From: a virus
Taxonomy: Duplodnaviria; Caudoviricetes
IMG/VR virus record: IMGVR_UViG_3300046331_000690
Span: 1-56,120 of that record
Strand: one strand, 5' to 3'
Length of the DNA stretch: 56,120 bases
Both the position numbers and the translations under genes were made by a program. Under the pieces are notes generated by a model. It made no database searches. It saw only the letters and a list, made by a program, of their open reading frames with translations, and was not told the DNA's origin. This document shows positions 1-44,253 of this stretch, piece after piece; within the stretch, counting starts at the first letter, position 1, and each line of letters starts with the position of its first letter.

Positions 1-117
1 CAAAGGAAGATAGGCCAATTTAGAGTGCAACATATAAAATTTATTCTACGGGCAAAAGAATGGTATATGGAGGCATTGATTGATAGTAAGATTGAGTTTG
101 TGGGAGGGGAGGATTAA
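1..117 (+). CDS. 3' part of a 70-aa hypothetical protein spanning the window join (56025..56120 + 1..117)
   Basis: Manual translation gives MARIQLV...SFEYN|QRKIGQF...VGGED*. The TAA at 115-117 overlaps the AAC core of repeat R0. Confidence 0.75.
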   Translation, partial: QRKIGQFRVQHIKFILRAKEWYMEALIDSKIEFVGGED

Positions 118-238
118 CGCACAGGGCTTAACGCAGGTGTGGTATTAGATAGGTGATTTACAGCCCTTGTACTTGGCTTGGATATATATGCTGCCGATAG
201 CCTGATTGTCAAGCCACACTTGCGGTAAACCCAATGTT
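116..238. repeat. attC-like hairpin repeat R0
   Basis: AAC..GGGCTTAACGCAGGTGTGG...CCACACTTGCGGTAAACCC..GTT, 123 bp. Confidence 0.85.
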
Positions 239-266
239 GGCTGCTGTACGGTAAAAAAATAAAGAA

Positions 267-518
267 ATGACAAAAGAAAGTATCATAGAATTACAAAAGA
301 TTGATTGCAACTGTAATGATTGTAAACACCTTGTCCGTGATTTTGAAAAATATAAATTATTTGATGGTTTATATACAAATGAGAAGGGTCAGGTTACAAG
401 TCCATCACATCGTGTCAATTATGGTAATTGTCAAAAATTAAATAAGGCGGTATCGTTTATTCCGAATACCTGTCAATTAGAAACGCAAGGCTGCTTTGAA
501 CATCGGAGAGTAGTATAG
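267..518 (+). CDS. Cassette 1: Cys-rich hypothetical protein
   Basis: 83-aa ORF with a CNCNDC motif. Its stop lies in the cassette right end. Confidence 0.75.
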   Translation: MTKESIIELQKIDCNCNDCKHLVRDFEKYKLFDGLYTNEKGQVTSPSHRVNYGNCQKLNKAVSFIPNTCQLETQGCFEHRRVV

Positions 519-523
519 CGTAC

Positions 524-645
524 AACGCCTACGGCTTGGCGAAGTGGGGGAATTATACCCACAAAAGCCGATTAGAATTACTAATGTTTAATAACAGATA
601 AAAGATGATAGAAGCAGTCAGCCCCCATTTTGCCAAACCGATGTT
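524..645. repeat. attC-like hairpin repeat R1
   Basis: AAC..CGGCTTGGCGAAGTGGGGG...CCCCCATTTTGCCAAACCG.ATGTT, 122 bp. Confidence 0.85.
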
Positions 646-2008
646 ACCTGCTGGTGCGGTTGGTTTACGAGTACTTTCCTTATTCGATGGAATGAGCTGT
701 GGGCAACAAGCACTTGAAAGAATTGGTGTAAATGTTTTGGAATATTACGCAAGTGAAATTGATAAACACGCTATTGCAGTAACGATGCACAATTACCCAA
801 ATACAAAGCAATTAGGAAGCGTTATTGATGTGGATGGATATACACTACCAAAGATTGATTTATTGATTGGTGGAAGCCCTTGCCAAAGTTTTTCATTTGC
901 TGGCAAACGAAAAGGAATGAGTACAAAATGCGAAACAGAAATATTGACTTTAGAACACTATTTGGAATTGAAAAATGAAGGTTACGAATTTGAAGGGCAA
1001 AGCTATTTATTTTGGGAGTATATGAGATTGCTTAACGAAGTCAAACCAAAATACTTTTTACTTGAAAATGTACTGATGGGCGAAAAATGGGAAAAGATAT
1101 TGAGTAAAGCAATTGGAGTAAAACCAATTGAAATAAACTCTGCTTTAGTATCTGCTCAAAATCGAAGAAGATTATACTGGACAAATATTGGAATGCAACC
1201 AATGGGATTATTTGGAGATTTAGAAAACATAATACCGCAACCAAAAGACAAAGGTATTTTGTTAAAAGATATACTTGAAAGTGAAGTTGATGACAAATAT
1301 TATTTGAGCCAACAACGAATTGAAACAATGCTGAAAAGTGAAAGAAGTGTGCCTTATGTTGATGAAGAAACAAAGAAATTCAATTGCTTATTGGCTGTAT
1401 ATAATAAAATACCTACTGATGGGCAATATGTGGTACACAACACAATGCCACGAAGTAGCACAACTGGCAAAGGCGGTAGCGGACCACTAAGCCGAAATGA
1501 TGGTAAAACCTATTGCTTAGATACTGGAAGCACAAATGCAATTGAATTAGTTGGATGTATAAAGTTTGGCAGAACAGATGAGGCAAAGGAAATGAGAAAA
1601 GAAAGTATGAAAAATGGCAAAGATTATACACCATTTCAAGCCAAAGAAATAACTGGTATTGATTACGATAAAATGAATACGCTTACTACTGCAATAAATA
1701 AAGATAACCTGGTAATGCAATTAAATCCATCAACTGAAAGTAATGGATGCCAACCTTACCAACAAAATAGAATTTATGATACAGATGGAATTAGCCCCGC
1801 CTTAATGGCTCAAATGAGTTGTGGCACTCACGCCATAAAACACGAAAGAAAAATAAGAAGATTAACACCTTTAGAGTGTGAAAGACTGCAAACCGTTAAA
1901 TATGGATATACAAGTGTAGCTTCTGATAGTCAGCGATACAGAATGTTAGGTAATGGATGGACTGTTGATGTTATTGCTCACATATTATCTTACGGAGAAT
2001 GGTCGTAG
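641..2008 (+). CDS. Cassette 2: C5-cytosine DNA methyltransferase
   Basis: Motifs LSLFDG (I), GGSPCQ (IV), LENV (VI), QNRRR (VIII), RRLTPLECERLQ (IX) and LGNGW (X). The likely start is ATG 641 inside the repeat; the ORF track gives 605. Confidence 0.92.
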   Translation: MLPAGAVGLRVLSLFDGMSCGQQALERIGVNVLEYYASEIDKHAIAVTMHNYPNTKQLGSVIDVDGYTLPKIDLLIGGSPCQSFSFAGKRKGMSTKCETEILTLEHYLELKNEGYEFEGQSYLFWEYMRLLNEVKPKYFLLENVLMGEKWEKILSKAIGVKPIEINSALVSAQNRRRLYWTNIGMQPMGLFGDLENIIPQPKDKGILLKDILESEVDDKYYLSQQRIETMLKSERSVPYVDEETKKFNCLLAVYNKIPTDGQYVVHNTMPRSSTTGKGGSGPLSRNDGKTYCLDTGSTNAIELVGCIKFGRTDEAKEMRKESMKNGKDYTPFQAKEITGIDYDKMNTLTTAINKDNLVMQLNPSTESNGCQPYQQNRIYDTDGISPALMAQMSCGTHAIKHERKIRRLTPLECERLQTVKYGYTSVASDSQRYRMLGNGWTVDVIAHILSYGEWS

Positions 2009-2019
2009 CACTTGCAGGT

Positions 2020-2141
2020 AACGGTGGGCATATTACGCAGGTTTGGAGGCTTTGCAATCAGATCCAAACCAGCACTAAAGCCCGGCTCTGCAAGCTGACC
2101 AGGATATGACTTCCAGCCAAACTTGCGTAAATGCCGTTGTT
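2020..2141. repeat. attC-like hairpin repeat R2
   Basis: AAC..GGCAT[A]TTACGCAGGTTTGG...CCAAACTTGCGTAAATGCC..GTT, 122 bp, with one bulged A. Confidence 0.85.
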
Positions 2142-2195
2142 GTGTGCTGTTTTTCTTAGGGTTTTACAACTATCTTTAAAATAATTGTAAATAAA

Positions 2196-2231
2196 TTAGG
2201 AAAATACAATTTGACGGCATATATTTGTATT
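2196..2231 (+). promoter_or_regulatory. Putative Bacteroidota promoter inside cassette 3
   Basis: TTAG(2196-99)-N20-TATATTTG(2220-27), overlapped by the inverted repeat AATACAA/TTGTATT. Confidence 0.55.
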
Positions 2232-2246
2232 ACAAAAGCAAAAAAC

Positions 2247-2501
2247 ATGACAAAGACAATTTCACAATTACGCAAAGAAGCAAACAAAGCACCTAAGTAC
2301 GTTTTAAAAATGGACGGACTTGATTTATTTGTTGCCGACAAACAGGCTTTAACTGGCTGCAATATCACTGAAGATGTAAAGAAGGCTAAAATGTTTTCAG
2401 TTGGTTTTGATAATGAAGAAATGAAAGCTGGAGTATGGACGGCAGTTGCACAGTTAATGACTAATAACAAAGATGTAAAGTTTGAAGTAATGTATTTATG
2501 A
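2247..2501 (+). CDS. Cassette 3, gene 1: hypothetical protein
   Basis: ORF with ATG 2247 after an A-rich leader. Confidence 0.7.
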   Translation: MTKTISQLRKEANKAPKYVLKMDGLDLFVADKQALTGCNITEDVKKAKMFSVGFDNEEMKAGVWTAVAQLMTNNKDVKFEVMYL

Positions 2502-3169
2502 GAATAATAGTAGGATGCGAAGAAAGCGGCGAAGTACGTGATGCCTTTATAAAATTAGGGCATGATGCAATTAGCTGCGATTTAAAGCCATCAAGGAACG
2601 GCGGGCCACATTATCAGGGCAGCATCTTTGATATAGACTACTCTGATTTTGATTTGGCTATAATTCATCCACCATGCACTTACTTATGCGTTACTGCAAA
2701 TAAATGGCTTAAAGACCAACCTGCCAGAAAAAGCGGGGCATTAGTTGGAGCAGAAAGGCGGCAAGCCGTAAAAGAGGCACATGATTTTTTTATAGCCTGC
2801 TGGAAATTACCAGTTAAAAGAATGTGTATTGAAAACCCTGTAGGCGTAATGAGTTCATTATGGCGAAAGCCGGATCAAATCATACAACCGTGGCAATTTG
2901 GGCATAATGAACCAAAAAAAACCTGCCTTTGGCTGCGTGGCTTGCCACTATTAAAACACACTAAAATAATGGAACCGGAATATCATATAACAAAATCCGG
3001 GAAACGATTGCCTAAGTGGTATGCTTATGCTGATAAAAGCAAAGGGCAGGCACACAGGGCAGAAATTAGAAGCAAAACATTCACAGGCATTGCGGAAGCA
3101 ATGGCAAACCAATGGACAAATGAAAAGAAGATTATTTCACCTGTACTTGAAATCAACTTTGGAGCATAA
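2498..3169 (+). CDS. Cassette 3, gene 2: short phage C5-cytosine methyltransferase-like protein
   Basis: GCEESG (motif I-like), HPPCT (IV), IENP (VI), and C-terminal RSKTFTGIAEAMA. Confidence 0.75.
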   Translation: MRIIVGCEESGEVRDAFIKLGHDAISCDLKPSRNGGPHYQGSIFDIDYSDFDLAIIHPPCTYLCVTANKWLKDQPARKSGALVGAERRQAVKEAHDFFIACWKLPVKRMCIENPVGVMSSLWRKPDQIIQPWQFGHNEPKKTCLWLRGLPLLKHTKIMEPEYHITKSGKRLPKWYAYADKSKGQAHRAEIRSKTFTGIAEAMANQWTNEKKIISPVLEINFGA

Positions 3170-3341
3170 ATATTATGGCTCTTTAAAAGCGATTTTTATT
3201 GACACTACAAACCCGGATTTAGGAGTAAGCAAATTTACCCTGGACAGGTTTGATTTTGTCCAGCCCTACGAAAATGAAGTTTGTGTAATTCGTAAAGGCT
3301 TTATGCAGTCCACCGGCGATATTAGGACTGCTACCAAATAG
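3120..3341 (+). CDS. Cassette 3, gene 3: small hypothetical protein, possibly DNA-binding
   Basis: In-frame ATG 3120 within ORF 3021..3341. The stop lies in the cassette right end. Confidence 0.6.
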   Translation: MKRRLFHLYLKSTLEHKYYGSLKAIFIDTTNPDLGVSKFTLDRFDFVQPYENEVCVIRKGFMQSTGDIRTATK

Positions 3342-3346
3342 CACAC

Positions 3347-3469
3347 AACGGATTGGGGCTTGTAGCAGTAGTGGATCTATAGCACTACTGTTCAATACAC
3401 CACTAAAGCTGATTAGAAGTACACAGCTCAAAACTTGCACTTCTGCCCCTATTGCTACAAACCCTTGTT
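3347..3469. repeat. attC-like hairpin repeat R3
   Basis: AAC..GGGCTTGTAGCAGTAG...CTATTGCTACAAACCC.TTGTT, 123 bp. Confidence 0.85.
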
Positions 3470-3520
3470 AGCGGTAGTACGGTAAAATAAATAAGGGTGT
3501 AAAAATTAAAAACAGAAAAA

Positions 3521-3853
3521 ATGAAAAAAGCATTTATCAAATGGATGTCCAACCAAAACTGGATTTACAACTTAGCAGTAAAATTAATTGCTAACAGAAT
3601 TGTACACGGTCAAAATCAACTTACGCCTAAATATCTAATGGATAGAGGATGGGTTGAAGAAGAAGGATTTTTTGTTGAGTCAAACATTAAAGACCGTGAT
3701 AAGATTTGGATAAAGTTTGAAAACCACTATTTCAGAATTTGGCACGGCAAAGAAAGAACCTTTATCGGTTTAGAAAGCAAAGTTGAATGGTTTGAAAACT
3801 ACTATCTACTTGCTCACGGTGATAATGGTCGCTACCAACTTGCAGGTGTGTAG
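3521..3853 (+). CDS. Cassette 4: hypothetical protein
   Basis: 110-aa ORF that fills the cassette. Confidence 0.75.
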   Translation: MKKAFIKWMSNQNWIYNLAVKLIANRIVHGQNQLTPKYLMDRGWVEEEGFFVESNIKDRDKIWIKFENHYFRIWHGKERTFIGLESKVEWFENYYLLAHGDNGRYQLAGV

Positions 3854-3863
3854 TATTACCGCT

Positions 3864-3991
3864 AACGAACAGGGCTTGGCTGCACGTACCGGAATTTGAA
3901 ATACTGAATTTCAGCCCTTGTACAAAAGCCCGGTTATGTACCGAAGTTGATAGTCAAATTGTCAAGCCGGTATTGCGCCAAACCCCATGTA
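3864..3991. repeat. attC-like hairpin repeat R4 (right core GTA)
   Basis: AAC..GGGCTTGGC..TACCGG...CCGGTA..GCCAAACCC..GTA, 128 bp. Shares CAGCCCTTGTAC and TTGTCAAGCC with R0. Confidence 0.8.
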
Positions 3992-4051
3992 CTACGTAGT
4001 ATTTTCTTGTGCTGCGGAGCATTTTTAAGTAACAATTTAAAAACTATAACA

Positions 4052-4447
4052 ATGATAACAAGAGATTTATTCAGACTTCCTTTCGGAAACCACAAGTTAA
4101 CAGATGGGATTTATACTTTCTTGCTTCAAAAAGAAAATTCCGATTATCTCCGAAAGACTACTTACAGCATAAGGCAATACGACTCTTTATCGGGAGGTTC
4201 GGTTACATTTTATGAAGATATTGACGATGTTTTTGATAACACAAGCCGATATAAGCAAAAGGTTTTAAAATATAGAGTATTCATTACGGGAATGTCTTTT
4301 GGTGGTAGGGATGATTTATGGAATGTACTTTACAACTTAAAATACGTTCCTAAGTCCTCTTATAAAGAGTGGTTAAAAAAAGTTGAAGGAATAATGTCCA
4401 TCCAAATTGAAAAACAAATGTGTGGCGTTGGCGAAAATATTACGTAG
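4052..4447 (+). CDS. Cassette 5: hypothetical protein
   Basis: Likely ATG at 4052; the upstream part of ORF 3947 is repeat sequence. Confidence 0.7.
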   Translation: MITRDLFRLPFGNHKLTDGIYTFLLQKENSDYLRKTTYSIRQYDSLSGGSVTFYEDIDDVFDNTSRYKQKVLKYRVFITGMSFGGRDDLWNVLYNLKYVPKSSYKEWLKKVEGIMSIQIEKQMCGVGENIT

Positions 4448-4571
4448 TACGGTTCGGGGCTTTAAGAAGTTGGGGTTTCAAAGCTCAAATGTTCGTTTAA
4501 GCACTACTGTTGATTAGAATTACAAAAGTTGGGGTTTATCACTTCTGCCCCAATTTCTTAAACCCCTTGTT
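4448..4571. repeat. attC-like hairpin repeat R5 (left core TAC)
   Basis: TAC..GGGGCTTTAAGAAGTTGGGG...CCCCAATTTCTTAAACCCC.TTGTT, 124 bp. Shares GCACTACTGTT, GATTAGAA and CACTTCTGCCCC with R3. Confidence 0.85.
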
Positions 4572-4626
4572 ATGCCATCGTTGCGGTTTTCAAGGCAGGA
4601 AGTTTAACTTAAAAACAATTTAAAAA

Positions 4627-5343
4627 ATGAAATTAATAGCACTTGGCGACACTCACGGCAGAACAGATTGGAAGCAAATAGTTTCTAATACTGAATTTGA
4701 TAAAGTAATATTTATTGGCGACTACTTTGATACTCACGAAGATATTACACCTGAACAGCAGAAGTCAAATTTTGAAGATCTGATTAAATACAAAATAGCC
4801 AATATGGATAAAGTTGTTTTACTTTTTGGCAACCACGACTATCATTATTTAAAAACTGTAAATGAAACTTATAGTGGTTTTCAAGAATGGCACAGGACAG
4901 ATATAGCAGAGATGTTACACAAAGCATTAGGTGCTGATTTAATGCAAATGTGCCTAATTGATGGTAATTACATTTTTAGCCACGCAGGTGTAACAAAAAC
5001 TTGGTTGAAAAATACTGGTTATACAGGCGAAGACCCATTAGAATTATTTATAAATGATTTGTTTAAATATCAGCCATTGGCTTTTAGGTTTACAAGTGGT
5101 GTTAATCATTCTCCTTATGGTGATGATATTTGCCAAACGCCAATATGGGTTCGCCCACAAAGTTTGTATGCAGATTGTTTGGATAATTTTATTCAAGTTG
5201 TTGGGCATACTACACAAAAGCAATTAAAGATTATAGACGACAAGATAGTATTGATTGATACAATCGGAATGTCTGGTCAATTTCTTTGTATCACTGATGG
5301 TGAAATGTCCGTTTTGGAACTATCACGTAGCAATGGGGCATAA
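4627..5343 (+). CDS. Cassette 6: calcineurin-like metallophosphoesterase
   Basis: GDTHG, GDYFD, GNHD, SHAG and GHT motifs. Confidence 0.9.
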   Translation: MKLIALGDTHGRTDWKQIVSNTEFDKVIFIGDYFDTHEDITPEQQKSNFEDLIKYKIANMDKVVLLFGNHDYHYLKTVNETYSGFQEWHRTDIAEMLHKALGADLMQMCLIDGNYIFSHAGVTKTWLKNTGYTGEDPLELFINDLFKYQPLAFRFTSGVNHSPYGDDICQTPIWVRPQSLYADCLDNFIQVVGHTTQKQLKIIDDKIVLIDTIGMSGQFLCITDGEMSVLELSRSNGA

Positions 5344-5472
5344 CGCTGGGCATATTGCGAAGTTGGGGTAATAGAATTACTGTCGCTTGGTAGCTTATTG
5401 CACAACTGCTCAACAAAGATTTAAACTCCGATTGCGGTTCCGTCAAGCCCCAATTTAGCAAATGCCTATGTT
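5342..5472. repeat. attC-like hairpin repeat R6
   Basis: AAC..GGCAT[A]TTGCGAAGTTGGGG...CCCCAATTTAGCAAATGCC..GTT, 131 bp, with the same bulged A as R2. Confidence 0.85.
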
Positions 5473-5512
5473 GGCTGCTGCTATTAGGGTTCTCAAAATA
5501 ATGTCCTAAATA

Positions 5513-5544
5513 TTTGGTGTAACCAATAAGTTACACTACATTTG
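5513..5544 (+). promoter_or_regulatory. Bacteroidota promoter with a palindromic operator in cassette 7
   Basis: TTTG(5513-16)-N20-TACATTTG(5537-44). The spacer is GTGTAAC-caataa-GTTACAC. Confidence 0.7.
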
Positions 5545-5558
5545 ATAAAACATTTATT

Positions 5559-5807
5559 ATGGCAACAGTAACAAAAAACGCAAAAGAACTGAGTTTTAAA
5601 CAAATAACTATTGGTGAATTGCAACACGCTGATTTTTTTTCTCTTAATGGTAAATCATTTTTCATCTTTTCAAGAGTGGAAGAAATCGGATTAGGATTAG
5701 TTTCTATTCATTACCTATCAACGGTGAAATGGCAATCGTATGACAGGGTAATCAGGAATGATAAAAAGGTGTTTGTTGCACCATTAGGGAGGCATTATGA
5801 AGGATAA
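5559..5807 (+). CDS. Cassette 7, gene 1: hypothetical protein
   Basis: 82-aa ORF downstream of the promoter. Confidence 0.7.
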   Translation: MATVTKNAKELSFKQITIGELQHADFFSLNGKSFFIFSRVEEIGLGLVSIHYLSTVKWQSYDRVIRNDKKVFVAPLGRHYEG

Positions 5808-5994
5808 AATATTTAACTACATAAATGCTGCTGCTTTCTTTTCTGAATACTTGCCACACATTAAAAGCTATAAACACAAATTACGTGGCAAAAATGGTAG
5901 AGGAAACATTGTTGACTTTACAGATAAAGAAAAAAAGGAAATAAACGCTGCCTTGAAAAAACTCTTTAAAGAATTAGGGGGTGTCGCAAAGTAG
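5797..5994 (+). CDS. Cassette 7, gene 2: small DNA-binding protein (DUF5053-like)
   Basis: KLRGKNGRGNIVDFTDKEKKEINAAL resembles the DUF5053 C-terminal pattern (recalled, not searched). Confidence 0.5.
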   Translation: MKDKIFNYINAAAFFSEYLPHIKSYKHKLRGKNGRGNIVDFTDKEKKEINAALKKLFKELGGVAK

Positions 5995-6040
5995 CAGCCA
6001 ACATCTTTTTTAATGCACTCTCTTTAAAAATCAACATTTT
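5990..6040. other. Putative attI-like primary recombination site
   Basis: The last cassette ends in AAC (6000-02) with no hairpin after it, 38 bp before the recombinase ATG. Confidence 0.55.
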
Positions 6041-6922
6041 ATGAATAGGAAAAATGAATTATTACAGCAATTTAAAAATGAATTGAGTTTGAGAAATTAT
6101 GCTATGAATAGTATAGATACTTACAGTGGGTATCTATCACAGTTTTTTGAAGCAATGAAAGGCAAACCAAAGCCATTGCAAATTGAGGAGATTAAACAAT
6201 TTTTGTTATCCATCACCAACATGAATACCAGGGCAATGTTTGTAAATAGCATCCGTAATTTTTATAGCTACATTTTAAAAACGCCTTTGAGTTTAGATGA
6301 TATTCCTTATCCACGTAAGACAAGTTATTTGCCACAAATACTAAGCATACAAGAGGTAGATCGAATGATGAAATGTGTTGTAAATATTAAGCATAAAGCC
6401 ATTTTGCAAACCATGTATAGTTGCGCTTTGCGTATAAGTGAAGTGCCAGAAATTGAATGCAATACTAATATATGTCACTTGGATAGCAGCAGAAAAACAT
6501 TGCTGGTGAAAGGTGCCAAGGGTTTTAAAGATCGGTATGTACCAATACCTATTCCTACCATTATATTGCTTCGCAATTACAGAATAGCAGATAATAAAGG
6601 AAAGTGGTTATTTATGGGGCAAAATCAACAAAAATATTCTGTGAGAAGTATTCAGCAGATTTTTCACCGTGCAAAAGAAGCTGCACATATTGCCAAAAAA
6701 GTAACGCCACATTCATTAAGGCATAGCCGCCTTACTCACCTATGCGAAGCTGGGATGGATATATACAAGCTAAAGGAATTTGCCGGGCACAACAATATTA
6801 AAACAACTGAAATTTATTTGCACCTCAGTAAATCATCACTGGTAAATAATACCGAGCTGGCAGACCTGATCATTGCACAGTCATTGCATAACAGTGAATT
6901 ATTAATAGAATTAGGAAATTAA
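6041..6922 (+). CDS. Tyrosine recombinase, integron-integrase-like/XerD-like
   Basis: N-terminal SAM-like segment (LRNYAMNSIDTY) and catalytic motifs LRISE, KGFKDR, HSLRHS, AGH, TTEIY. The IntI-specific insertion is absent. Confidence 0.93.
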   Translation: MNRKNELLQQFKNELSLRNYAMNSIDTYSGYLSQFFEAMKGKPKPLQIEEIKQFLLSITNMNTRAMFVNSIRNFYSYILKTPLSLDDIPYPRKTSYLPQILSIQEVDRMMKCVVNIKHKAILQTMYSCALRISEVPEIECNTNICHLDSSRKTLLVKGAKGFKDRYVPIPIPTIILLRNYRIADNKGKWLFMGQNQQKYSVRSIQQIFHRAKEAAHIAKKVTPHSLRHSRLTHLCEAGMDIYKLKEFAGHNNIKTTEIYLHLSKSSLVNNTELADLIIAQSLHNSELLIELGN

Positions 6923-6923
6923 A

Positions 6924-7364
6924 ATGAGAACACCCTTCACTTTAGCTGATCTTAAAAAAACGCCTTGTGCGGCAATTAATCAGCACCTCTTTGTTGCGCC
7001 GGTTAAGAAAAAAGAAAAGAGCCTTGGCAAGCAAAAAACATGGATTCAGTTTAGATTACTCCAGTTTGCAGAAAGCAACAAACTGGAGCTTAAAGAAGAA
7101 CATAGATTTCACGATGAGCGCAAGTGGCGTTTCGATTGGGCAATACCTGAGCTGCATATAGCATTTGAATACGAAGGTATCTTTTCAGCTAAAAGCCGCC
7201 ATACTACAGCCAAAGGTTTTACAGGTGATGCAGAAAAATATAACGCTGCTCAATCTGCAGGATGGATAGTTTACAGATACACTGCAATAAACTACTTAGA
7301 TTTGGTAACTGATCTAAATAATTTGCCCGGTATTATTCAAAAAGAAAAAGATTTATTCAAATAG
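6924..7364 (+). CDS. PD-(D/E)XK endonuclease (DUF559/Vsr-like)
   Basis: EHRFH..RKWRFDWA...AFEYEG...RH...D.EKYN.AQ..GW.VYR. Confidence 0.75.
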   Translation: MRTPFTLADLKKTPCAAINQHLFVAPVKKKEKSLGKQKTWIQFRLLQFAESNKLELKEEHRFHDERKWRFDWAIPELHIAFEYEGIFSAKSRHTTAKGFTGDAEKYNAAQSAGWIVYRYTAINYLDLVTDLNNLPGIIQKEKDLFK

Positions 7365-7378
7365 AGTAACTTTGACTT

Positions 7379-7933
7379 ATGGCCAAAAAACAATTGACCG
7401 ATTTAAAACAGGATCCGAGCAACTTTAATCAGCATTCTCAATTTGGTATGGGCCTACTGGAAAAGTCAATAAGGAAGTTTGGTTTTGTAGAAGCTGGCCT
7501 TATTAGTGAAGATGATGTTATCTGCTCAGGAAATGCCAGGCAGGAGACCGCAGTTAGTATTGGAATGGAAGATGTGCAGATAATTGATATAGATGGTAGT
7601 AAACCCGTTTATCTACGAAAAAAAGGACTAAAAAGCGGCTCACAGGAATTTAAAGAACTTGGATTGGCTTTAAATGCTGTAGGTAAAGCTAATGTGGTAT
7701 TGGATGCTGAATTGATTGAAGCCGAATTGGGGGATGCTGTTTGTGAGGAGTGGGGAATTGAAAAAGAATTAAACTATAGTAGTAAAAATAAAGAAATTGA
7801 TTTAGATGAAAATGAACGTTTTACTATTGAATTAAATTTTACTGCTGATAATTTTTTCAGCATTAAAGAGGCAATTGCTGCCAAAGGGATAACTGCTGAA
7901 TCTATTCTACTTAAAGCTTTGAATATTGACTAA
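7379..7933 (+). CDS. ParB-like N-terminal domain protein
   Basis: LKQDPSNFNQH..LEKSIRKFGF..ICSGNAR pattern; sits directly before a methyltransferase. Confidence 0.65.
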   Translation: MAKKQLTDLKQDPSNFNQHSQFGMGLLEKSIRKFGFVEAGLISEDDVICSGNARQETAVSIGMEDVQIIDIDGSKPVYLRKKGLKSGSQEFKELGLALNAVGKANVVLDAELIEAELGDAVCEEWGIEKELNYSSKNKEIDLDENERFTIELNFTADNFFSIKEAIAAKGITAESILLKALNID

Positions 7934-8984
7934 ACATAAATTTCCATATAACTGGAACTTAGCAGACGGCTATCCTGCTAAAGGAATTGAACCGAATAAT
8001 TTAAATGTATTCGGAACTTTTATTTGCGGTGGTGGCTCAACTATGGGTTATAAATTAGCAGGCTTCAATCATTTAGGCGGAGTTGAAATAGATAAAAAAG
8101 TTGCAGCAGTTTATAAACTTAATCATAATCCAAAGCACCTTTTTATTGAAGATTTAAGAGCATTTAACCAAAGAAATGATTTGCCAGATCAATTATTTGA
8201 ATTGGATATTTTAGATGGTTCTCCACCATGCAGCACTTTTTCTATGGCTGGAAATAGAGAAAAAGACTGGGGTAAAGAAAAAATGTTTAGAGAGGGGCAG
8301 GCTATGCAAACATTGGATGACCTTGTTTTTGTGTACACTGACACTATTTTAAAACTAAGGCCAAAGGTTGCAATACTTGAAAATGTTAAAGGATTGATTC
8401 AGGCAAATGCCAGAGCCTATCTGCATCAAATAAAAAACCACCTTCAACTGGCCGGATATTCAGTTCAGGTTTTTTGTCTAAATGCAGCATCTATGGGAGT
8501 ACCACAAAAAAGAGAAAGAGTATTTTTAATTGCAAGGCAAACCACCTTCAACTGGCCGGATATTCAGTTCAGGTTTTTTGAAAAACCAATATTATTTGGA
8601 GAATTATCAAAATTAAACCCAAATGGAAAATTCAAAGAAATTATTGACTCTTGCAAAGATTTATGGAAAAATGCAAAACAAGGCTGCGGTCTTAATACAG
8701 TGCATCCAAATGGAAGCTCGTTTTTTTCTAAACGAAAGGTATCAGATAAAGAAGTTTGTGGAACTTTAACAGCACATGCAGATGAGGATTTTATGCACTC
8801 AACTGAGTTTAGGTGCTTAAATGAAGATGAGTTTAAGTTTATCGGAAGTTATCCAAAAGATTATAATTTTATTAATATTAATCCTGCTTATCTAATAGGC
8901 ATGTCAGTTCCTCCCGTAATGACAGCACAAATAGCACATCAGATTTATTTGCAATGGTTTAAAACGGAGGTAGAAAATGCGTAA
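7926..8984 (+). CDS. C5-cytosine DNA methyltransferase
   Basis: FICGGG, GSPPCS, LENV, QKRER and GMSVPP motifs; TTG start. Confidence 0.9.
   Translation: MTKHKFPYNWNLADGYPAKGIEPNNLNVFGTFICGGGSTMGYKLAGFNHLGGVEIDKKVAAVYKLNHNPKHLFIEDLRAFNQRNDLPDQLFELDILDGSPPCSTFSMAGNREKDWGKEKMFREGQAMQTLDDLVFVYTDTILKLRPKVAILENVKGLIQANARAYLHQIKNHLQLAGYSVQVFCLNAASMGVPQKRERVFLIARQTTFNWPDIQFRFFEKPILFGELSKLNPNGKFKEIIDSCKDLWKNAKQGCGLNTVHPNGSSFFSKRKVSDKEVCGTLTAHADEDFMHSTEFRCLNEDEFKFIGSYPKDYNFININPAYLIGMSVPPVMTAQIAHQIYLQWFKTEVENA
8435..8580. repeat. Exact 42-bp direct repeat (8435-8476 and 8539-8580)
   Basis: AAACCACCTTCAACTGGCCGGATATTCAGTTCAGGTTTTTTG occurs twice. Confidence 0.9.
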
Positions 8985-9468
8985 ACCAGACAAACAAACC
9001 ATTATAGATTTTATCATTAGTTGCCTTGAAAAAGGAGAGCAACGTGGTAACATATTGGTAAAAACTGGTAAAAAGTGGGGAACTAGTAAATCTGCCTTTG
9101 ATAGATGGCTAAAAATAGCAAAGCAGCAGTTAACTGATAAGCAGCAGGCCATTAAAAAGGAACTGGAAGCTATTGATAAAGCAGCAGCTATTGAAGCTCG
9201 TAAAAAGGCTATAATGACCGCAGATGAAAGGAAAGAATATTTGACTAAAATCATAAATGGAGAAGTAAAATTTAAAAAGCCATTTTTTGTAAAAGGTAAA
9301 ATAATGGAATACCCTGCTGAACCGGATGTAGCTGATAGGATGAAAGCAATATCTGAATTGAACAAAATGGAGGGTGACTATGCAGAAACAGCTATTAGGT
9401 TAAAAGGAGATGCTCTTTCTCCTTTAGAAATCTTCATAAATGGCAAACCAGCAGGTGCCGGTAGTTAA
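8977..9468 (+). CDS. terS: Terminase small subunit
   Basis: N-terminal HTH, DRMKAISELNKMEG motif, and position directly upstream of TerL. Confidence 0.75.
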   Translation: MRKPDKQTIIDFIISCLEKGEQRGNILVKTGKKWGTSKSAFDRWLKIAKQQLTDKQQAIKKELEAIDKAAAIEARKKAIMTADERKEYLTKIINGEVKFKKPFFVKGKIMEYPAEPDVADRMKAISELNKMEGDYAETAIRLKGDALSPLEIFINGKPAGAGS

Positions 9469-10792
9469 TATAAATATTGACTATGACAGTGTATTTCTAC
9501 CTGTTTACAAGCCGCTCAGAAATACTGATGCCCGGTTAAAATTTGTATATGGTGGCCGGGATAGCGGTAAGAGCCGGGATAGAGCCCAACAAAAAATAAT
9601 TGATTGCCTTTCTAAAAAGTATTTCCGATGCATCCTGATTAAAAAAACTGCAAATTCAATCAAGGATAGCCAGTGGCAGTTGATAAAAGATATTTGTGAG
9701 GAATGGAATATTGATCACCTGTTCCAGTTTAATACCAGCCCATTAGAGATTAAGTGTAAAGTAAATGGAAACAAATTCATTTGCCGGGGTATGGATGATC
9801 CTGCAAAGATTAAATCTATCAATGAGCCTTCAGATGCCTGGATAGAGGAAGGCAATCAACTTACTTTAGAAGACTGGATTTATATTATAACCACTCTCCG
9901 GAGCAATAGAGGACCAGTGAGTATTGATATGACCTTCAATACTGAAACTAAGGGAGATTATGAAGACTTCTGGCTGTATAAGGAGTATTTTAGCCATACT
10001 ACAGAAAAGAGTTTTACCCATACCAAAACGATCAGCTTTGGCAATGAAAAGGTAGATCTTAAATACATTGCCGTACATAGTACCTACCATGATAATCCAC
10101 ATGTTAGCATTGAAAGAAAGGCCTATCATGAAGGTTTGCAAACCTTAAATTTTTACTGGTACCGGGTATTTACTCAAGGCCTTTGGGGAAATGAAGAAAA
10201 CAATAGTCCATGGTTATTTGCATTTGACCGGGCAAAACATGTAAGTGCTGTAGAGCTATTTGCCAAGCGATCAGAGATACTGTATATAAGTTTTGACTTT
10301 AACCGGAATCCGCATGCGTGCACCATCATTCAATGGTATGATGAAACAGTATTTATTATTGAAGTGCTTAAAATACCGAATGTAGGTACTGAGGGTATCT
10401 GTGATATTGCAAAAGAGAAATATCCTGGCTTTTTATATGTTGTGACTGGTGACTATTCCGGTGATACTGTTTCTTCCCTGTTTAAAGAGCAGGTTACCAA
10501 TTATACCATCATTAAAAAATCGCTCTCTCTTAATGATGGACAGGTAAAGATTTCACCAAACCCAAGACTGGAGAAAAACCAAACGCTTGTAAATACCATT
10601 TTTAGTAAGTATAAAATATTGATGTGCCCGGTAAAGGCAAAGCCAGCCATTTATGATGCAGAAAAAGTAAATACGAGGGCAGATGGAACAATTGTAAAAG
10701 ATGATAGAAATGATCCTACACAACAGGCCGATGTACTGGATACTCTTCGTTATTGGTTCAACCAGTTTATGGGATGGTTTATAAAAAAATAA
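9440..10792 (+). CDS. terL: Terminase large subunit (PBSX-like)
   Basis: Walker A YGGRDSGKS, Walker B WIEE, TFN coupling motif, nuclease SFDFN and D..D.LRY. Confidence 0.93.
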   Translation: MANQQVPVVNINIDYDSVFLPVYKPLRNTDARLKFVYGGRDSGKSRDRAQQKIIDCLSKKYFRCILIKKTANSIKDSQWQLIKDICEEWNIDHLFQFNTSPLEIKCKVNGNKFICRGMDDPAKIKSINEPSDAWIEEGNQLTLEDWIYIITTLRSNRGPVSIDMTFNTETKGDYEDFWLYKEYFSHTTEKSFTHTKTISFGNEKVDLKYIAVHSTYHDNPHVSIERKAYHEGLQTLNFYWYRVFTQGLWGNEENNSPWLFAFDRAKHVSAVELFAKRSEILYISFDFNRNPHACTIIQWYDETVFIIEVLKIPNVGTEGICDIAKEKYPGFLYVVTGDYSGDTVSSLFKEQVTNYTIIKKSLSLNDGQVKISPNPRLEKNQTLVNTIFSKYKILMCPVKAKPAIYDAEKVNTRADGTIVKDDRNDPTQQADVLDTLRYWFNQFMGWFIKK

Positions 10793-29286: not shown

Positions 29287-30168
29287 ATGGCAAAAATCAG
29301 CTCAGTTTTAGAAAGACAGTTTAAGAAATTAGGTATAGAAATTACAGACGAACTGAAAACAGTTCTTGAGATAGAAGGGGAAATGCCTGATGATGTTGCT
29401 TCTAAAATTGACAAAGGGTTACTTACCCTAGAGGCTGCCAAAACCAATCCTGAAATAACCAAGTCATTAAAGCAGAGTACCCTTGCCGGGGCTGATGCTA
29501 AGATGGATGAAATTATTAAGGAAATGGGCCTGACAGTAGGTGAAGATTTTGCAGGTGAAAAGAATACCTATGAAAAAATTAGCATGCTGAGTAAAATGTT
29601 GCATGAGCAGGGGAAGAAAAAAGGGGAAGGTAACAGCAAAGAAAGTGTAAGTGATCTTTTGAAAAAAGAGCGTGAAGCATTTGCAGCTAAAGAAGCTGAT
29701 ATGCAAAAGAAATTGAAAGACCTTACAGACGGACTTACCAGTAAGGAATCTGAATTTAAAAATATCAGGGAGAGTGATCTTACATCATTTGAACTGCAAA
29801 AAATATTACTTGGGAAAGACTATGTTTTTCCTAAGGAAATGGATAGTTCTTTAAAAGTACAAACTGCTTTGGGAGCTCTCAATAAGGACCTAGCCGAAAA
29901 GGGATTGGTTATCAAACGAAACGAAGCCGGATCATTGGTAATTACCGATAAAGAAGGCCAAAAAGCGTACACTGATAAGCATGAACCAATTGACAGTCCA
30001 CACTCATACATTGACGGCGTGCTTACGCAAAACAAATTACTGAACATTAATGACCCTAATGCTCAGAAACAACAACAGGGGTCACAAGGAGCACAAACTA
30101 TTCCAGGAACTGGCGCAAAAGGAAATGCAACAATTGTTGCAGAGATTGATGCACAGATTTTTAAATAG
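29287..30168 (+). CDS. Capsid scaffolding protein
   Basis: Charged, helical protein directly before the capsid gene. Confidence 0.65.
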   Translation: MAKISSVLERQFKKLGIEITDELKTVLEIEGEMPDDVASKIDKGLLTLEAAKTNPEITKSLKQSTLAGADAKMDEIIKEMGLTVGEDFAGEKNTYEKISMLSKMLHEQGKKKGEGNSKESVSDLLKKEREAFAAKEADMQKKLKDLTDGLTSKESEFKNIRESDLTSFELQKILLGKDYVFPKEMDSSLKVQTALGALNKDLAEKGLVIKRNEAGSLVITDKEGQKAYTDKHEPIDSPHSYIDGVLTQNKLLNINDPNAQKQQQGSQGAQTIPGTGAKGNATIVAEIDAQIFK

Positions 30169-30207: not shown

Positions 30208-31329
30208 ATGGGTAAAGGATTAGCCAATGCCCTCTTGATATCTTCCCGTGAAGTTTTCAGAGGAGCTACGCCTATAACTAAATTAACCACTCCGGGTTTT
30301 TTGCAGTACCTGCTGCAGAATAACAAGCCAAAGATTGTCAGCATGGCAAAAGATGATGGCACAGGATATTTACGTGATCTTAAAATCAGATTCCGTACCA
30401 GGGGTGTTCCCGGCAGATCAGTAACAACTGATGATTGTTCTGTACAAGTAAAGCCAGCCTATCAGGAACTGGTAGTTCCTGCCACCAGCTATCGTGCTTT
30501 TGGGCTTTGTTTTGAAGATGATGAAATTGCCAAATTTGAAAGCGATTCATTGGCACAATTGAGTGCCGGTAATCCTACCATGACAGGCATCATGAAGGAT
30601 GTATATGAAGCAATCATTGAGCAAGCCAATGGTTTTGTTGCTGATATCAACCTTGATTTATTGGCATTACAGGCCGCCAATTTTGGAAAGAATGCCACTA
30701 CCGGATTTAATACTGCCAAAGCAGTAAACTTCCCATTAAGCACTGCTACCAATCCTTTAGCATCTGGCATGACAGATGTAATGGCTGATGCAATGGCAAA
30801 TGAAATGCGTCTTTCTGGAGCATGCATAGTAGGTAGCGGTTTGATCAACAACTATTACCTGAACCAAAGTGCAATACCTGCAGGGCAAGGCAATCAGGCT
30901 GGTATTAATACATCTATGTTGGCATTACCAAACTTTTATTTTGATCCTTATGCCCAAACATCATGGGGAGCTAATCAGTTTGGTTTGTTTGAAAAAGATG
31001 CAATCCAGTTTGTAAATACCTGCCGTTTCAGAGGTGCCAAAGCTGGTCAGAAAGGAAGTGATTTCTTTATGACATTGAGGTTGCCTTTGATTGATAGTCT
31101 TGGCCAGGGTGATTTAGGTTATTTTGAATTTGATGTTCAATTGGCATACAGAACCTGCCCAAGTGAAATAGTAATCAACGGCGGTGCACCGGTACAAATT
31201 GGTCGTGGTTGGAATATCATTTTGAGCTGCTCATACCAGACAATAAATATTCCTTCTAACAGCTATGAGGCTACTGACAGGTTAAATCAGGTAAACGGAA
31301 CCTTCCTTTACTCAGCTACAAACGCATAG
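30208..31329 (+). CDS. Major capsid protein
   Basis: 373 aa; position after the scaffold gene and composition fit. Confidence 0.7.
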   Translation: MGKGLANALLISSREVFRGATPITKLTTPGFLQYLLQNNKPKIVSMAKDDGTGYLRDLKIRFRTRGVPGRSVTTDDCSVQVKPAYQELVVPATSYRAFGLCFEDDEIAKFESDSLAQLSAGNPTMTGIMKDVYEAIIEQANGFVADINLDLLALQAANFGKNATTGFNTAKAVNFPLSTATNPLASGMTDVMADAMANEMRLSGACIVGSGLINNYYLNQSAIPAGQGNQAGINTSMLALPNFYFDPYAQTSWGANQFGLFEKDAIQFVNTCRFRGAKAGQKGSDFFMTLRLPLIDSLGQGDLGYFEFDVQLAYRTCPSEIVINGGAPVQIGRGWNIILSCSYQTINIPSNSYEATDRLNQVNGTFLYSATNA

Positions 31330-40751: not shown

Positions 40752-40988
40752 ATGCGCTATATGTTCACTGCTATTATTGCAATTCCATCCTACCATATTG
40801 GTTTTTTAGACATTTTTGAGGTTGACAACAATACATATTTTGCAAACCCTAAAAACTCATGGGAAAGCCTACACTATCCTCCAGAGTATGTACAGTTTTA
40901 CTTTTCAAAAATTGGTTCAACATGGAAAACTGAACCACATGTACTTCAGAATATTTTAGAACAAGTTATTGAGCAAGGGGGGTTATGA
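40752..40988 (+). CDS. Hypothetical protein
   Basis: 78-aa ORF converging on the integrase. Confidence 0.5.
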   Translation: MRYMFTAIIAIPSYHIGFLDIFEVDNNTYFANPKNSWESLHYPPEYVQFYFSKIGSTWKTEPHVLQNILEQVIEQGGL

Positions 40989-42200
40989 AAAACTATTTGC
41001 CACCTTTTTAAGCCGTTGGTGTTGCCTTTCTTTTTCTCCATGTGCATAGTGCGATAAAGTTATTACAGGTGTTGTATGGCCAGCCATATCAGCTGCAGAC
41101 TGAATATCCAAAGCCGCTGCTATTTCATCTAAATTAGAATGCTTTAAACTATAGAAATCAGCAGAAATGTTAAGTCCACCTTTTTCAACTGTAGCTTTTA
41201 CGTGTGTCCTCCAGCGCCGGGTAATTTGCTCTGGCCTGATCTGTTTTACTCCTGGTTTAAGGCCAACACTAAATATAAAATCTTCTGGTTTTGCATCTTT
41301 CAGCAATTCTTCCCATAGGGGGAGTATATTATCTTTAATCGTTCTTAGCTGTTCATTTGTTTGTTTACCTTTTTTTACTAATAATTTGTATTGCTGTTTC
41401 TCAAGATAAATATCTTTTCTTTGAACCCTTAATAATTCAGTTTCCCGGCTGCCAGAATGAAAGAAAATTTGCATAAAACGCCAAAAGGAATAAGTTTTTA
41501 TTTTTAAATGATTATTTATTTTGGTTCTTTCTTCAGCTGTAAGGGTCTGTCTTATCCTTTTTATCACTTTCTTCTTTTTTAAATCTTTCACAGGATTTAT
41601 TTCTGTAGCCTCCATTTCTACCAATTCAGAGAATAGTATCATTAAGTATGATCTAAATTTATTGTAACGGTCATTGCTGAACTTAGGATTGATAATGGCC
41701 ACCTGCTCCAACAGTGCTTTAATATGCTTTCTTCTTACATCTCCAATTGTTAAAGCAGTAATATGCATTTGTCTGGCAGCGGCCTCTAATGCTTTAATTA
41801 CACATTTGATATCCTCAGTAGTATGTGGTTCAACTTTCAATTTTGGTAAAACCTCCCAAAAAGCTTCTATAAATTTTGTACCTGGATGAATCTCGTGGTT
41901 CAATACTACCGGTTTAATAAATTCTCCAGTAATAGGGTTGTATCCTTCATATTGAAGCATCATCAATAGCTCATCCATTACTACCTGTACAGCAGATCTT
42001 CTTTCCTGTAATGTTTTAAAGCGATTGATTTTGCTTTTCAGAATTTTTAAACAACCCTTTTTATATTTTTCTTTGAAAGCAGGGTCATGAAAATAGTATT
42101 GAATGTACCATTCCTTTTTTACAGAAGCAGATTGTGTTTTCCAGTTTTTCGGGAAAACAGTAGGTTCGCTGCAGGTGCAGCCATTTGGTAGTTGTAGCAT
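40983..42200 (-). CDS. int: Prophage tyrosine integrase
   Basis: GSRETE, KKGK, YSLKH, AGH and HY motifs; adjacent to attP. Confidence 0.92.
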   Translation of the reverse strand: MLQLPNGCTCSEPTVFPKNWKTQSASVKKEWYIQYYFHDPAFKEKYKKGCLKILKSKINRFKTLQERRSAVQVVMDELLMMLQYEGYNPITGEFIKPVVLNHEIHPGTKFIEAFWEVLPKLKVEPHTTEDIKCVIKALEAAARQMHITALTIGDVRRKHIKALLEQVAIINPKFSNDRYNKFRSYLMILFSELVEMEATEINPVKDLKKKKVIKRIRQTLTAEERTKINNHLKIKTYSFWRFMQIFFHSGSRETELLRVQRKDIYLEKQQYKLLVKKGKQTNEQLRTIKDNILPLWEELLKDAKPEDFIFSVGLKPGVKQIRPEQITRRWRTHVKATVEKGGLNISADFYSLKHSNLDEIAAALDIQSAADMAGHTTPVITLSHYAHGEKERQHQRLKKVANSFS

Positions 42201-43500: not shown

Positions 43501-44253
43501 TCAATTTCTATTGATAATTATTGAGTTTGTATTGCGTTTTATAACGCCGGTAACTATAAAAATATTGATGATTTCATTTACGGGTATATCAAAAGGGGGA
43601 TAGGCAAGTTTGCCCAGCCTGGCTCCTTCATCAAAAAGCATGGTATTATCTGAGTAGCAGGTAAAAAAATCACTGTGGCTTTCGTCATTTTTATAAAAAA
43701 TCCTTTTGACCATTCTTCTGTCTGCAGTTTCAATAACATAAACCTCTCCGGGCTCTATAAATTTACTTCTGCATCTAACTAATCCAATTACACATCCAGG
43801 AGGATAATTAGGGATCATGCTGTTCCCGTAAATTCTTATGGCTGCTTCACTATCATTTAATAAATCCCCAATATAAATTGTGCCGGCTGGAGCCTGAATA
43901 GGCATGATTTCAGAATTAAGGTTACCGGCTGATGCATCTGCATCGTAAAATGGAATATGTTTTTTTTCTTTTCCATTTTTTAAATCATTTCTTTTTACAT
44001 GGTATGGAGCAGTAGGTTCATTTAAGACATTTTCATTTAAATCAGAATTGGTGAGCATTTCTCCAACACCATGAAGTAGCCAAATCTCATTCAGTTTTGG
44101 ATAGGTAGATTTTATTTTAGAAAGGTTTTTTGGACCAATAGAAGTTCTAATATTATTTACAGAACCATTAGAAATATCACAGTTCTTTTCAAATTGAGAT
44201 TGCCCAATTTGGAGAGTATTTATGAATTCTATTAGTCTTTCTTTAACTGACAT
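43501..44253 (-). CDS. cI: CI-like repressor (HTH plus S24 peptidase)
   Basis: N-terminal HTH, WLLHGVGEM, GNSMIP and VKR. Confidence 0.88.
   Translation of the reverse strand: MSVKERLIEFINTLQIGQSQFEKNCDISNGSVNNIRTSIGPKNLSKIKSTYPKLNEIWLLHGVGEMLTNSDLNENVLNEPTAPYHVKRNDLKNGKEKKHIPFYDADASAGNLNSEIMPIQAPAGTIYIGDLLNDSEAAIRIYGNSMIPNYPPGCVIGLVRCRSKFIEPGEVYVIETADRRMVKRIFYKNDESHSDFFTCYSDNTMLFDEGARLGKLAYPPFDIPVNEIINIFIVTGVIKRNTNSIIINRN

Follow-up and report, generated by a model that had tools for sequence, protein, structure and literature searches.

In classical integrons, promoter-poor gene cassettes form an array in which they are parted by imperfect-palindrome sites (attC) with AAC/GTT terminal boxes, and the crossover puts each terminal box on the neighbouring cassette, so that the self-complementary site exists only in the excised circle. 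The insertion site (attI) lies directly next to the gene for a tyrosine recombinase, which is oriented away from the array, and the structure of the sites is conserved more than their sequence. Short inverted sites or stem-loops also delimit other small gene modules that are reshuffled between replicons, such as the pdif modules on Acinetobacter plasmids and the modules at promoter early stem-loops (PeSLs) of T4-like phages. The pdif sites are 28-bp duplex XerC/D sites common to neighbouring modules, PeSLs have to our knowledge no dedicated recombinase, and we know of neither a pdif nor a PeSL system with a 120-nucleotide (nt) covarying hairpin and cassette-specific closing stems. Here we analysed a 56,120-nt virus contig (IMG/VR record IMGVR_UViG_3300046331_000690; Duplodnaviria, Caudoviricetes), the whole of which is referred to as the window. 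Its region 117–6922 shares the integron features listed above, and we consider it probable that a temperate phage of the Bacteroidota type has here an integron-like platform for gene capture, served by the Xer-like recombinase encoded directly beside the array.

Clusters of attC sites in phages were described by Qi et al. in 2023, including one in Polaribacter phage P12002L that contains two DNA methyltransferase cassettes and of which one predicted attC was recombined into attI1 by IntI1, with the bottom strand only (PMC9892861); their text links the sites to no recombinase and does not contain the words Xer, Flavobacteri- or Bacteroid-. The P12002L methylase cluster (locus L050, 29,100–32,350, minus strand) has junctions of the AAC-hairpin-GTT kind, two of them at 29,974–30,077 and 30,849–30,964, and own-end pairing like those described below, and one of these junctions may be the attC2 of the paper. 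In the case of CTX-phi and the integrative mobile elements exploiting Xer (IMEX), XerCD, a recombinase that has no I2 insert, exchanges a single strand at a hairpin folded from single-stranded phage DNA (PMC7790495). There the host XerCD is hijacked, the hairpin mimics duplex dif and the whole phage integrates, whereas in the present system the phage itself encodes the enzyme, and there are many sites, at which gene cassettes would be moved. Searches of the full-text literature, subscription journals and very recent papers being outside this coverage, found no description of the present cassette system.

The array (117–6002) consists of seven junction repeats (J0–J6, 116–125 nt between boxes) interleaved with seven bodies (C1–C7), and all of its features lie on the + strand. 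Its distal border is non-cassette phage DNA ending ..GGATTAAC (110–116), which gives the 5′ box of J0 (117–235), an attC-like hairpin site that is part of the first cassette. Each repeat is laid out as ..YAAC, 3–6 nt, a 5′ arm of ~20 nt, which is of the GGGCTT..GCAGTTGGGG type and has one or two additional bases, a variable stretch of ~65 nt, a 3′ arm of ~19 nt, 2–3 nt and GTT... A covariance model built from J0–J6 matched J0 at 111–242 with 107.8 bits and, with it, J1 (527–642), J2 (2023–2138, 94.9 bits), J3 (3350–3466, 103.9 bits), J4 (3867–3988, 95.9 bits), J5 (4451–4568, 105.3 bits) and J6 (5345–5469, 93.9 bits). These seven are the only sites that it finds in the 56-kb window, the other matches at E<=1 being three weak minus-strand echoes of them, and there is no repeat upstream of J0 or at the opposite end of the contig. 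An Rfam scan of positions 1–7000 of the window gave zero matches at E<=1.

Already in the seven window copies, J0 among them, 9 of the 18 predicted pairs display compensatory change. Beyond the window, the model gave 37 matches in total at E<=1e-4 in 13 sources, 36 of them on the strand of the recombinase gene, with 35 upstream of that gene and 1 downstream. Over these 37 rows, seven of which are the model's own and one a minus-strand echo, in an alignment fitted to the model, 91.4% of the cells of the stem pair; the figure is 64.0% in shuffles, none of 500 of which is as high, and 40–51% with slid partners. Both sides have changed in a compensatory manner in 13 of the 18 pairs. One pair of the inner (L) stem is G·T in 35 of 37 rows. 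Taken together, these alignments indicate that the stem of J is conserved as a structure, beyond sequence alone. The boxes AAC and GTT and a covarying palindrome are thus present in J, and of the classical GTTRRRY core only GTT(R), with a purine at position 4, is kept. A count of open frames ±45 nt across the two borders of J (16 versus 21 of 37) is an uninformative comparison. Repeat-like matches also occur downstream of the recombinase gene in three related loci (L039 8559–8690, 65.9 bits; L011 4900–4995, 19.3 bits; L041 3405–3530, 24.9 bits) and may represent a second insertion place.

The preliminary description of this DNA had proposed that the left end of each cassette pairs with its own right end and not with that of a neighbour. 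All seven end pairs that it quoted were located, and they delimit the bodies C1 (236–526), C2 (643–2022), C3 (2139–3349), C4 (3467–3866), C5 (3989–4450), C6 (4569–5344) and C7 (5470–6002). When the left ends were compared with all right ends, the true assignment was the single best of 5040 permutations, so that no shuffled pairing, the outcome named beforehand as counting against the idea, scores as well as the own ends (1/5040). Over the first 16 nt the own ends of C1–C7 agree at 10, 13, 13, 13, 15, 9 and 13 positions (sum 86; permutation mean 55.3), and the prefix match with one mismatch permitted extends over 4, 9, 14, 14, 18, 8 and 13 nt; foreign prefix matches reach at most 6, with the sole exception of the left end of C1 with the right end of C7 (10). 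The flanks across a single repeat were likewise said not to match, and the right end of each body agrees with the left end of the next at only 6, 8, 7, 8, 5 and 6 of 16 nt, compared with 9–15 for own ends. The longest own-end stem, 18 nt, is that of C5, whose ends start GTA/TAC in place of GTT/AAC; C2 has a stem of 15 nt, C3 one of 14 nt and C6 one of 8 nt ungapped, and the own ends of C1 pair poorly. With an R stem of ~15 bp the pairing is, as had been stated, much longer than the 7-bp R box of attC. The terminal stop codons also lie where they had been placed, since the last long open reading frames (ORFs) of the seven bodies stop 8, 14, 8, 13, 3, 1 and 8 nt before the terminus. An unanchored scan for GTT...AAC inverted ends found six in the 6.1-kb array and 28 in the remaining 50 kb, and was dropped as a sole test, being not discriminating; because this background is high, the significance of own-end pairing rests on ends that are set by the repeat borders.

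Folding the junctions as DNA gave the same picture. On the + strand own ends add −11.3 ± 2.2 kcal/mol (n=49) and foreign ends −4.9 ± 2.3 kcal/mol (n=294); on the minus strand the values are −9.4 and −4.1 kcal/mol. The circularised junctions form 9–18 R-stem pairs, compared with 0, 0, 8, 0, 5, 0 and 12 for the forms in the array. The statement that a fully paired site forms only in an excised circle holds for the local hairpin and is too strict otherwise, since in single-stranded DNA or in RNA the two ends could also pair within the array, with the body looped out.

We extended the comparison of ends to 39 cassettes from 13 loci, which are not fully independent, as one cassette recurs in four loci. 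By a scripted criterion the stem is at least 13 nt long in 33 of the 39, one of which (L040 3319–4701) is doubtful with seven mismatches. The usual own-end stem is stereotyped, with 10 bp, a mismatch (a G·T wobble) at position 11 and then 3–4 bp: at position 11 the right end has T in 39 of 39 cassettes and the left end G in 33 of 39. Counted over all stems, mismatches are G·T or T·G in 37 cases, A·C or C·A in 3 and other in 22. The cassette-specificity of the pairing resides in positions 4–7, which vary by cassette and yet agree between the two ends of a body; it does not extend to positions 8–14, which are semi-conserved and come in the types GCAGTAC and GTATTGC. The left end of C1 (236–526) looks chimeric in this respect, positions 1–7 (GTTGGCT) being the C7 box and positions 8–14 matching its own right end, position 11 being G/A as usual.

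Scans based on the recombinase located arrays on the strand of its gene and directly upstream of it, at protein identities as low as 50%. The gene-proximal border always ends ..AAC and precedes the start codon by 37–40 nt in 15 of 17 loci and by 43 and 50 nt in the other two; different cassettes adjoin this insertion site, and AACGCAC/AACGAAC-like and AAATCAA motifs are conserved after the border. In the window the attI-like site (6000–6040) comprises the AAC of the last cassette border and a conserved stretch of 38 nt that leads to the start codon of the recombinase gene, and C7 adjoins it without a repeat. As with the attI of integrons, the primary insertion site thus adjoins the recombinase gene. 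With a tyrosine recombinase starting 38 nt past the last cassette, the array also differs from a cluster of attC sites lacking an integron integrase (CALIN), which has no integrase nearby.

Comparison of related contigs (numbered with the prefix L) bears on the extent of the unit that moves. A body does not include the repeat that comes after it, because cassettes that are identical or homologous may or may not be followed by one. Positions 3992–4165 of L002 are 100% identical to positions 1–174 of L039 and end at AAC, after which the insertion site follows in L002 and a J in L039, and the first cassette of L002 is followed by a J and has its homologue in L003/L004 directly at the insertion site. 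Furthermore, the long ORF of C2 may begin within J1, at 605. These comparisons indicate that the mobile unit is a repeat J together with the body downstream of it. The preliminary description implied the classical unit of an ORF plus the repeat after it, which is wrong in view of C7, of the L002, L003, L004 and L039 comparisons, of the Freya indels described below and of the C2 start; it was right in expecting homologous cassettes elsewhere beside different neighbours, and these keep their borders unchanged. Units enter at the fixed 38-bp site upstream of the recombinase gene, and therefore all cassette ORFs in the window face that gene, with the site 5′ of its ORF; the polarity of the array is the mirror of that of a classical integron. 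One cassette, here called X, occurs in four loci (L005 1700–4024, L041 76–1022, L044 5744–7492 and L047 6443–7505), in which a left part of ~95 bp and a right part of ~90 bp are kept at 88–98% identity and the interiors differ, the whole measuring 947–2325 bp. The contigs L001, L003 and L004 start no more than 160 nt upstream of the recombinase gene, possibly because the array interrupts assembly.

Cultured phages have arrays of this design as well. Recombinase homologues with 25–33% identity are encoded by the Polaribacter phages Leef_1 and Freya_1–10 and by the Cellulophaga phage Ingeline, with arrays upstream of the gene in Leef_1, Freya and Ingeline; in Leef, Freya, Ingeline and the P12002L methylase cluster the own ends pair in the same way, and the repeats belong to another sequence family. 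Among the Freya isolates the record length and the position of the recombinase gene co-vary. Freya_6 equals Freya_5 plus 472 bp at the insertion site, between ..TTGTTACCAAC and ACCCCTATAAC.., and this insert consists of a 255-nt J, which holds a small ORF, and a body with paired ends. Freya_10 equals Freya_9 plus 307 bp at the same place, and Freya_8 plus a 902-bp unit at an internal position. In Freya_1 the end of the core gene, ..TTGTTTAC followed by AAC, stands directly against the insertion site, and in Freya_2, the record of which is 842 bp longer, two more units follow the same core gene end. All of these borders fall at AAC, with an ambiguity of 3–7 nt, and show that whole cassettes were gained or lost among isolates. 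Since near-identical Freya isolates differ exactly at the insertion junction, the system is not a fossil.

The gene beside the array (6041–6922) encodes a tyrosine recombinase of 293 amino acids (aa) with Phage_integrase (PF00589) and SAM-like (PF13495) domains, and the catalytic R-H-R-H-Y columns are invariant in the alignment of its family. It scores below all NCBIfam cut-offs: XerA_Arch is best with 180 bits (cut-off 220), followed by XerC (143/335), XerD (133/330) and integron integrase (131/265). With scores below the Xer equivalog cut-offs and no dif-like duplex site identified, the locus does not qualify as an Xer/dif system. Integron-integrase models match in two pieces, and model positions 175–254 are skipped (TIGR02249, query 7–178 to model 1–174; PRK15417, query 202–266 to positions 255–319). 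The protein aligns end to end with archaeal XerA (4a8e; residues 5–283) with no large gap, and against IntI4 (2a3v) query residues 168–203 (36 aa) stand opposite chain residues 168–246 (79 aa), a deficit of 43 residues at the region of the IntI-specific insert. Judged from these alignments, the recombinase is Xer-like and has no IntI-specific insert (I2 helix), which contradicts the integron-integrase nature that the preliminary description had implied. The family comprises at least 276 homologues at E<=1e-20; of the 120 listed, nearly all have 280–297 aa (range 231–392), and the 13 of them that were named by their sources are all called XerD. A TIGR02249 search of our own and control genomes yielded no true IntI with which a tree could be rooted. 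A scan of genome contigs gave one distant recombinase (27%), in a Chitinophagaceae metagenome-assembled genome, with no J match, and the distant recombinase loci (L006–L010, L014–L022, L048 and L049; <=44% identity, best segment) gave one J match, in L009, at 11.6 bits (E 0.77).

These sequence comparisons show the array with its borders and its unit, its linkage to the recombinase, the conservation of structure and the gain or loss of cassettes, and they suggest a mechanism. Units would stand head to tail, each made up of an attC-like imperfect-palindrome J of ~116–125 nt and a gene body with complementary ends of ~15 nt. The adjacent recombinase would catalyse the exchange, with a cut in the AAC at the end of each body or directly beside it; by analogy with the cut between G and TT in integrons, we read the cut as falling between AA and C on the + strand. 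A circular unit would insert at the attI-like AAC site, 38 nt upstream of the recombinase start codon, and the internal sites would permit units to be excised, to enter and to be reordered. In the circle the ends of the body flank J and are predicted to close a long hairpin, with an R stem of 10 bp, a G·T and 3–4 bp, beyond which come a small, asymmetric internal loop, a bulged L stem that has the second G·T, and the variable loop; the proposed cut would lie in the 5′ arm of this hairpin, as in integrons. The folded + (coding) strand, which is the counterpart of the classical bottom strand as seen from the recombinase, would be the substrate, and the G·T wobbles, impossible in duplex DNA, would mark it. 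The + strand folds better than the minus strand because of the asymmetry of the G·T at position 11 and in the L stem. Since the genes face the recombinase, a Pc-type promoter at the recombinase end cannot drive the phage cassettes, and expression must come from their own promoters or from read-through of phage transcription; some cassette ORFs start inside J.

The same features were weighed under three other explanations. A classical integron or CALIN, in which each cassette would be an ORF plus the following attC and would be recombined between G and TT of the right-hand box by an IntI-type integrase, accords with the AAC...GTT boxes, the imperfect palindrome, the variable loop and the stops at the right ends, and with the HattCI/Infernal attC calls in P12002L (PMC9892861), where the junctions of the methylase cluster are alike. 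We consider it very unlikely nonetheless: C7 has no following repeat and J0 precedes C1, a repeat follows some copies of identical or homologous cassettes and not others, the Freya indels consist of a repeat and the body downstream, the C2 ORF can start in J1, and there is no IntI, the sole neighbouring recombinase being without the insert and reaching 131 bits against a cut-off of 265. The repeats could alternatively be elements that act in RNA or in transcription, as terminators, processing sites or promoter stem-loops, with genes shuffled by homologous recombination and no site-specific enzyme involved. Wobbles that are compatible with G·U on the coding strand, the intergenic position of the repeats, the start codons that they carry and the reassortment of repeats and bodies would all suit such elements. 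This is improbable in view of borders that are exact at AAC irrespective of repeat similarity, of a recombinase-proximal site that has only AAC in common with the repeats and yet receives units, of the co-variation of inner box positions 4–7 between the ends of a body, and of a tie to one recombinase family that holds down to 25–33% identity.

It has also to be considered that the 293-aa enzyme is a lysogeny integrase or dimer resolvase whose own site lies beside its gene by chance, the cassettes being moved by another (host) enzyme or being fossil. An attP commonly lies beside int. P12002L, moreover, has junctions and is not among the tblastn matches for the tyrosine recombinase at E<=1e-10, nor does its record annotate a recombinase. 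Bartlau et al. call the Freya, Leef and Ingeline homologues lysogeny integrases, and the part of their text considered here mentions neither cassettes nor integrons nor indels (PMC8776804). Against this stand the separate 405-aa integrase and repressor-like gene of the window and the fixed distance at which the arrays stop before the recombinase gene in 15 of 17 loci, and we regard the explanation as unlikely.

Several observations weigh against the integron-like platform as we have described it. No excised circle was seen, and an enzyme without I2 means that a hairpin mechanism needs another means of recognition. The G·T bias would suit RNA folding equally well, because the + strand is the coding strand, and phage integration or dimer resolution could be an additional role of the recombinase, or its actual one. 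A border ambiguity of three nucleotides leaves the exact cut unfixed. The stems are short in 6 of the 39 cassettes, including C1, C6 and at least one probable composite (L045), and some of these cassettes may be composites with an undetected J. C1 is a true exception, with positions 5–7 unpaired and an inner box identical to that of C7, and C6 is weak, reaching only 8 nt without a gap. Nor is the linkage of J and body constant: the J upstream of cassette X is the same in L041 and L044 and different in L005 and L047, and short Logan contigs have other sequence before 642 and, in three runs, other bodies after 3488 (90% likeness). Such unlinking could reflect occasional use of the minus-strand hairpin or homologous exchange. 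The read check, made on four freshwater runs, gave short Logan contigs only, so that stretches without coverage carry no meaning; in run X9, two long joints that skip part of the array (552 to 4481 and 588 to 4535) connect two repeats, with 20–30 nt on each side, and were not used as evidence of excision.

The cargo of the seven cassettes comprises two DNA methyltransferases and one metallophosphoesterase, with C1, C4, C5 and C7 carrying only ORFs of unknown function. C1 has an ORF of 83 aa (267–518) without a family, and C2 a C-5 cytosine DNA methyltransferase (605–2008; PF00145, 7.7e-40; phrog_116), the possible start codon of which (605) lies in J1. The three ORFs of C3 include a DNA methyltransferase (2498–3169; phrog_757, 1.3e-61), and a promoter-like TAnnTTTG stands 5′ of the first of them, with similar motifs in relatives of C3. 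C4 (ORF 3521–3853) and C5 (ORF ending at 4447) have no family, C6 encodes the metallophosphoesterase (4627–5343; PF00149, 7.4e-12), and C7 has ORFs at 5559–5807 and 5797–5994, the second of which is a DUF5053 protein. Further methyltransferase-like cassettes, judged by eye, occur in related arrays.

Some sequence features recur between cassettes. After their left ends, C3 (2150–2250), C7 (5480–5560) and the last cassette of L002 (3650–3730) have a common TTAGGG..TCAAAATAA stretch, which may be a common regulatory region; behind it C3 and the L002 cassette have the TAnnTTTG promoter-like motif, the equivalent of which in C7 is TACATTTG. The 3′ halves of several repeats (J1 605–642; L002 ~2026–2092; L011 ~160–228) code for a related N-terminal leader (MIEAVS.., MMIEEQKDDSGSVS.., MMNSEQNAQDSSVS..) that continues into the cassette ORF. 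Mini-cassettes of 61–164 nt without an ORF, barely more than paired ends, are present at L002 1305–1468, L023 3733–3793, L030 1461–1521 and L054 ~6892–6954.

The window is the whole 56,120-base record, a virus contig with a completeness rating of 100% and no end repeats, and we conclude that it is a complete 56-kb temperate phage and not a bacterial integron. Nearly all of its genes are on the + strand, and the GC skew is positive along the full length. It encodes a terminase (9440–10792) and, on the minus strand, a separate lysogeny block with the 405-aa integrase (40983–42200) and an S24 peptidase repressor-like gene (43501–44253). The recombinase gene is directly followed, beyond the array, by a ParB-like gene and another C-5 DNA methyltransferase (7926–8984), which together span 7379–8984. 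Compared by DNA with GenBank phages, the window had its methylase genes as sole matches and no near relative. The array is contained, whole or in part, in 24 listed runs, every one of which is labelled as a freshwater metagenome and two of which may be its source.

Collectively, our results indicate that the phage array is a new version of the integron principle, and the integron-cassette interpretation of the preliminary description stands as to an integron-like mobile array in which a body's own ends are needed for the full site, and falls as to polarity and enzyme. The differences from classical integrons are that the phage recombinase is Xer-like and without the IntI-specific insert, that the cassette ORFs lie on the opposite strand, with the site 5′ of the ORF and the genes facing the recombinase, that the R stem measures ~15 bp and includes a G·T at position 11, the classical one having 7 bp, that the phage sites keep only GTT and the position-4 purine of GTTRRRY, and that the host is here a phage genome. 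Thus two tested features that define integrons, the IntI insert and the orientation of the cassettes, are absent. The I2 insert of IntI is held to enable single-strand attC recognition and recombination, and a viral origin is speculated on (PMC7790495). Integron researchers have postulated an Xer-like, possibly viral, integron ancestor. More tentatively, we suggest that phages of the flavobacterial type may possess an integron analogue of their own, in which an Xer-like enzyme without I2 would recognise single-stranded sites through two G·T wobbles that replace extrahelical bases, and barcoded own-end stems would complete the site in the circle or, with the body looped out, in the array; it would be either an independent invention or a relic of such an ancestor.

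For the origin of integrons, a large phage recombinase family (at least 276 homologues) that is without I2 and tied to attC-like cassettes makes the question of I2 directly testable, and in Freya_1–10, which infect one host and differ by whole cassettes at the insertion site, a laboratory system exists. The 'integrases' by which these phages were marked as temperate (PMC8776804) may instead be cassette recombinases. Since the cassettes carry DNA methyltransferases and other likely counter-defence genes, the platform may be a route by which phages exchange anti-restriction functions. The system thus bears both on how integrons arose and on how phages trade accessory genes.

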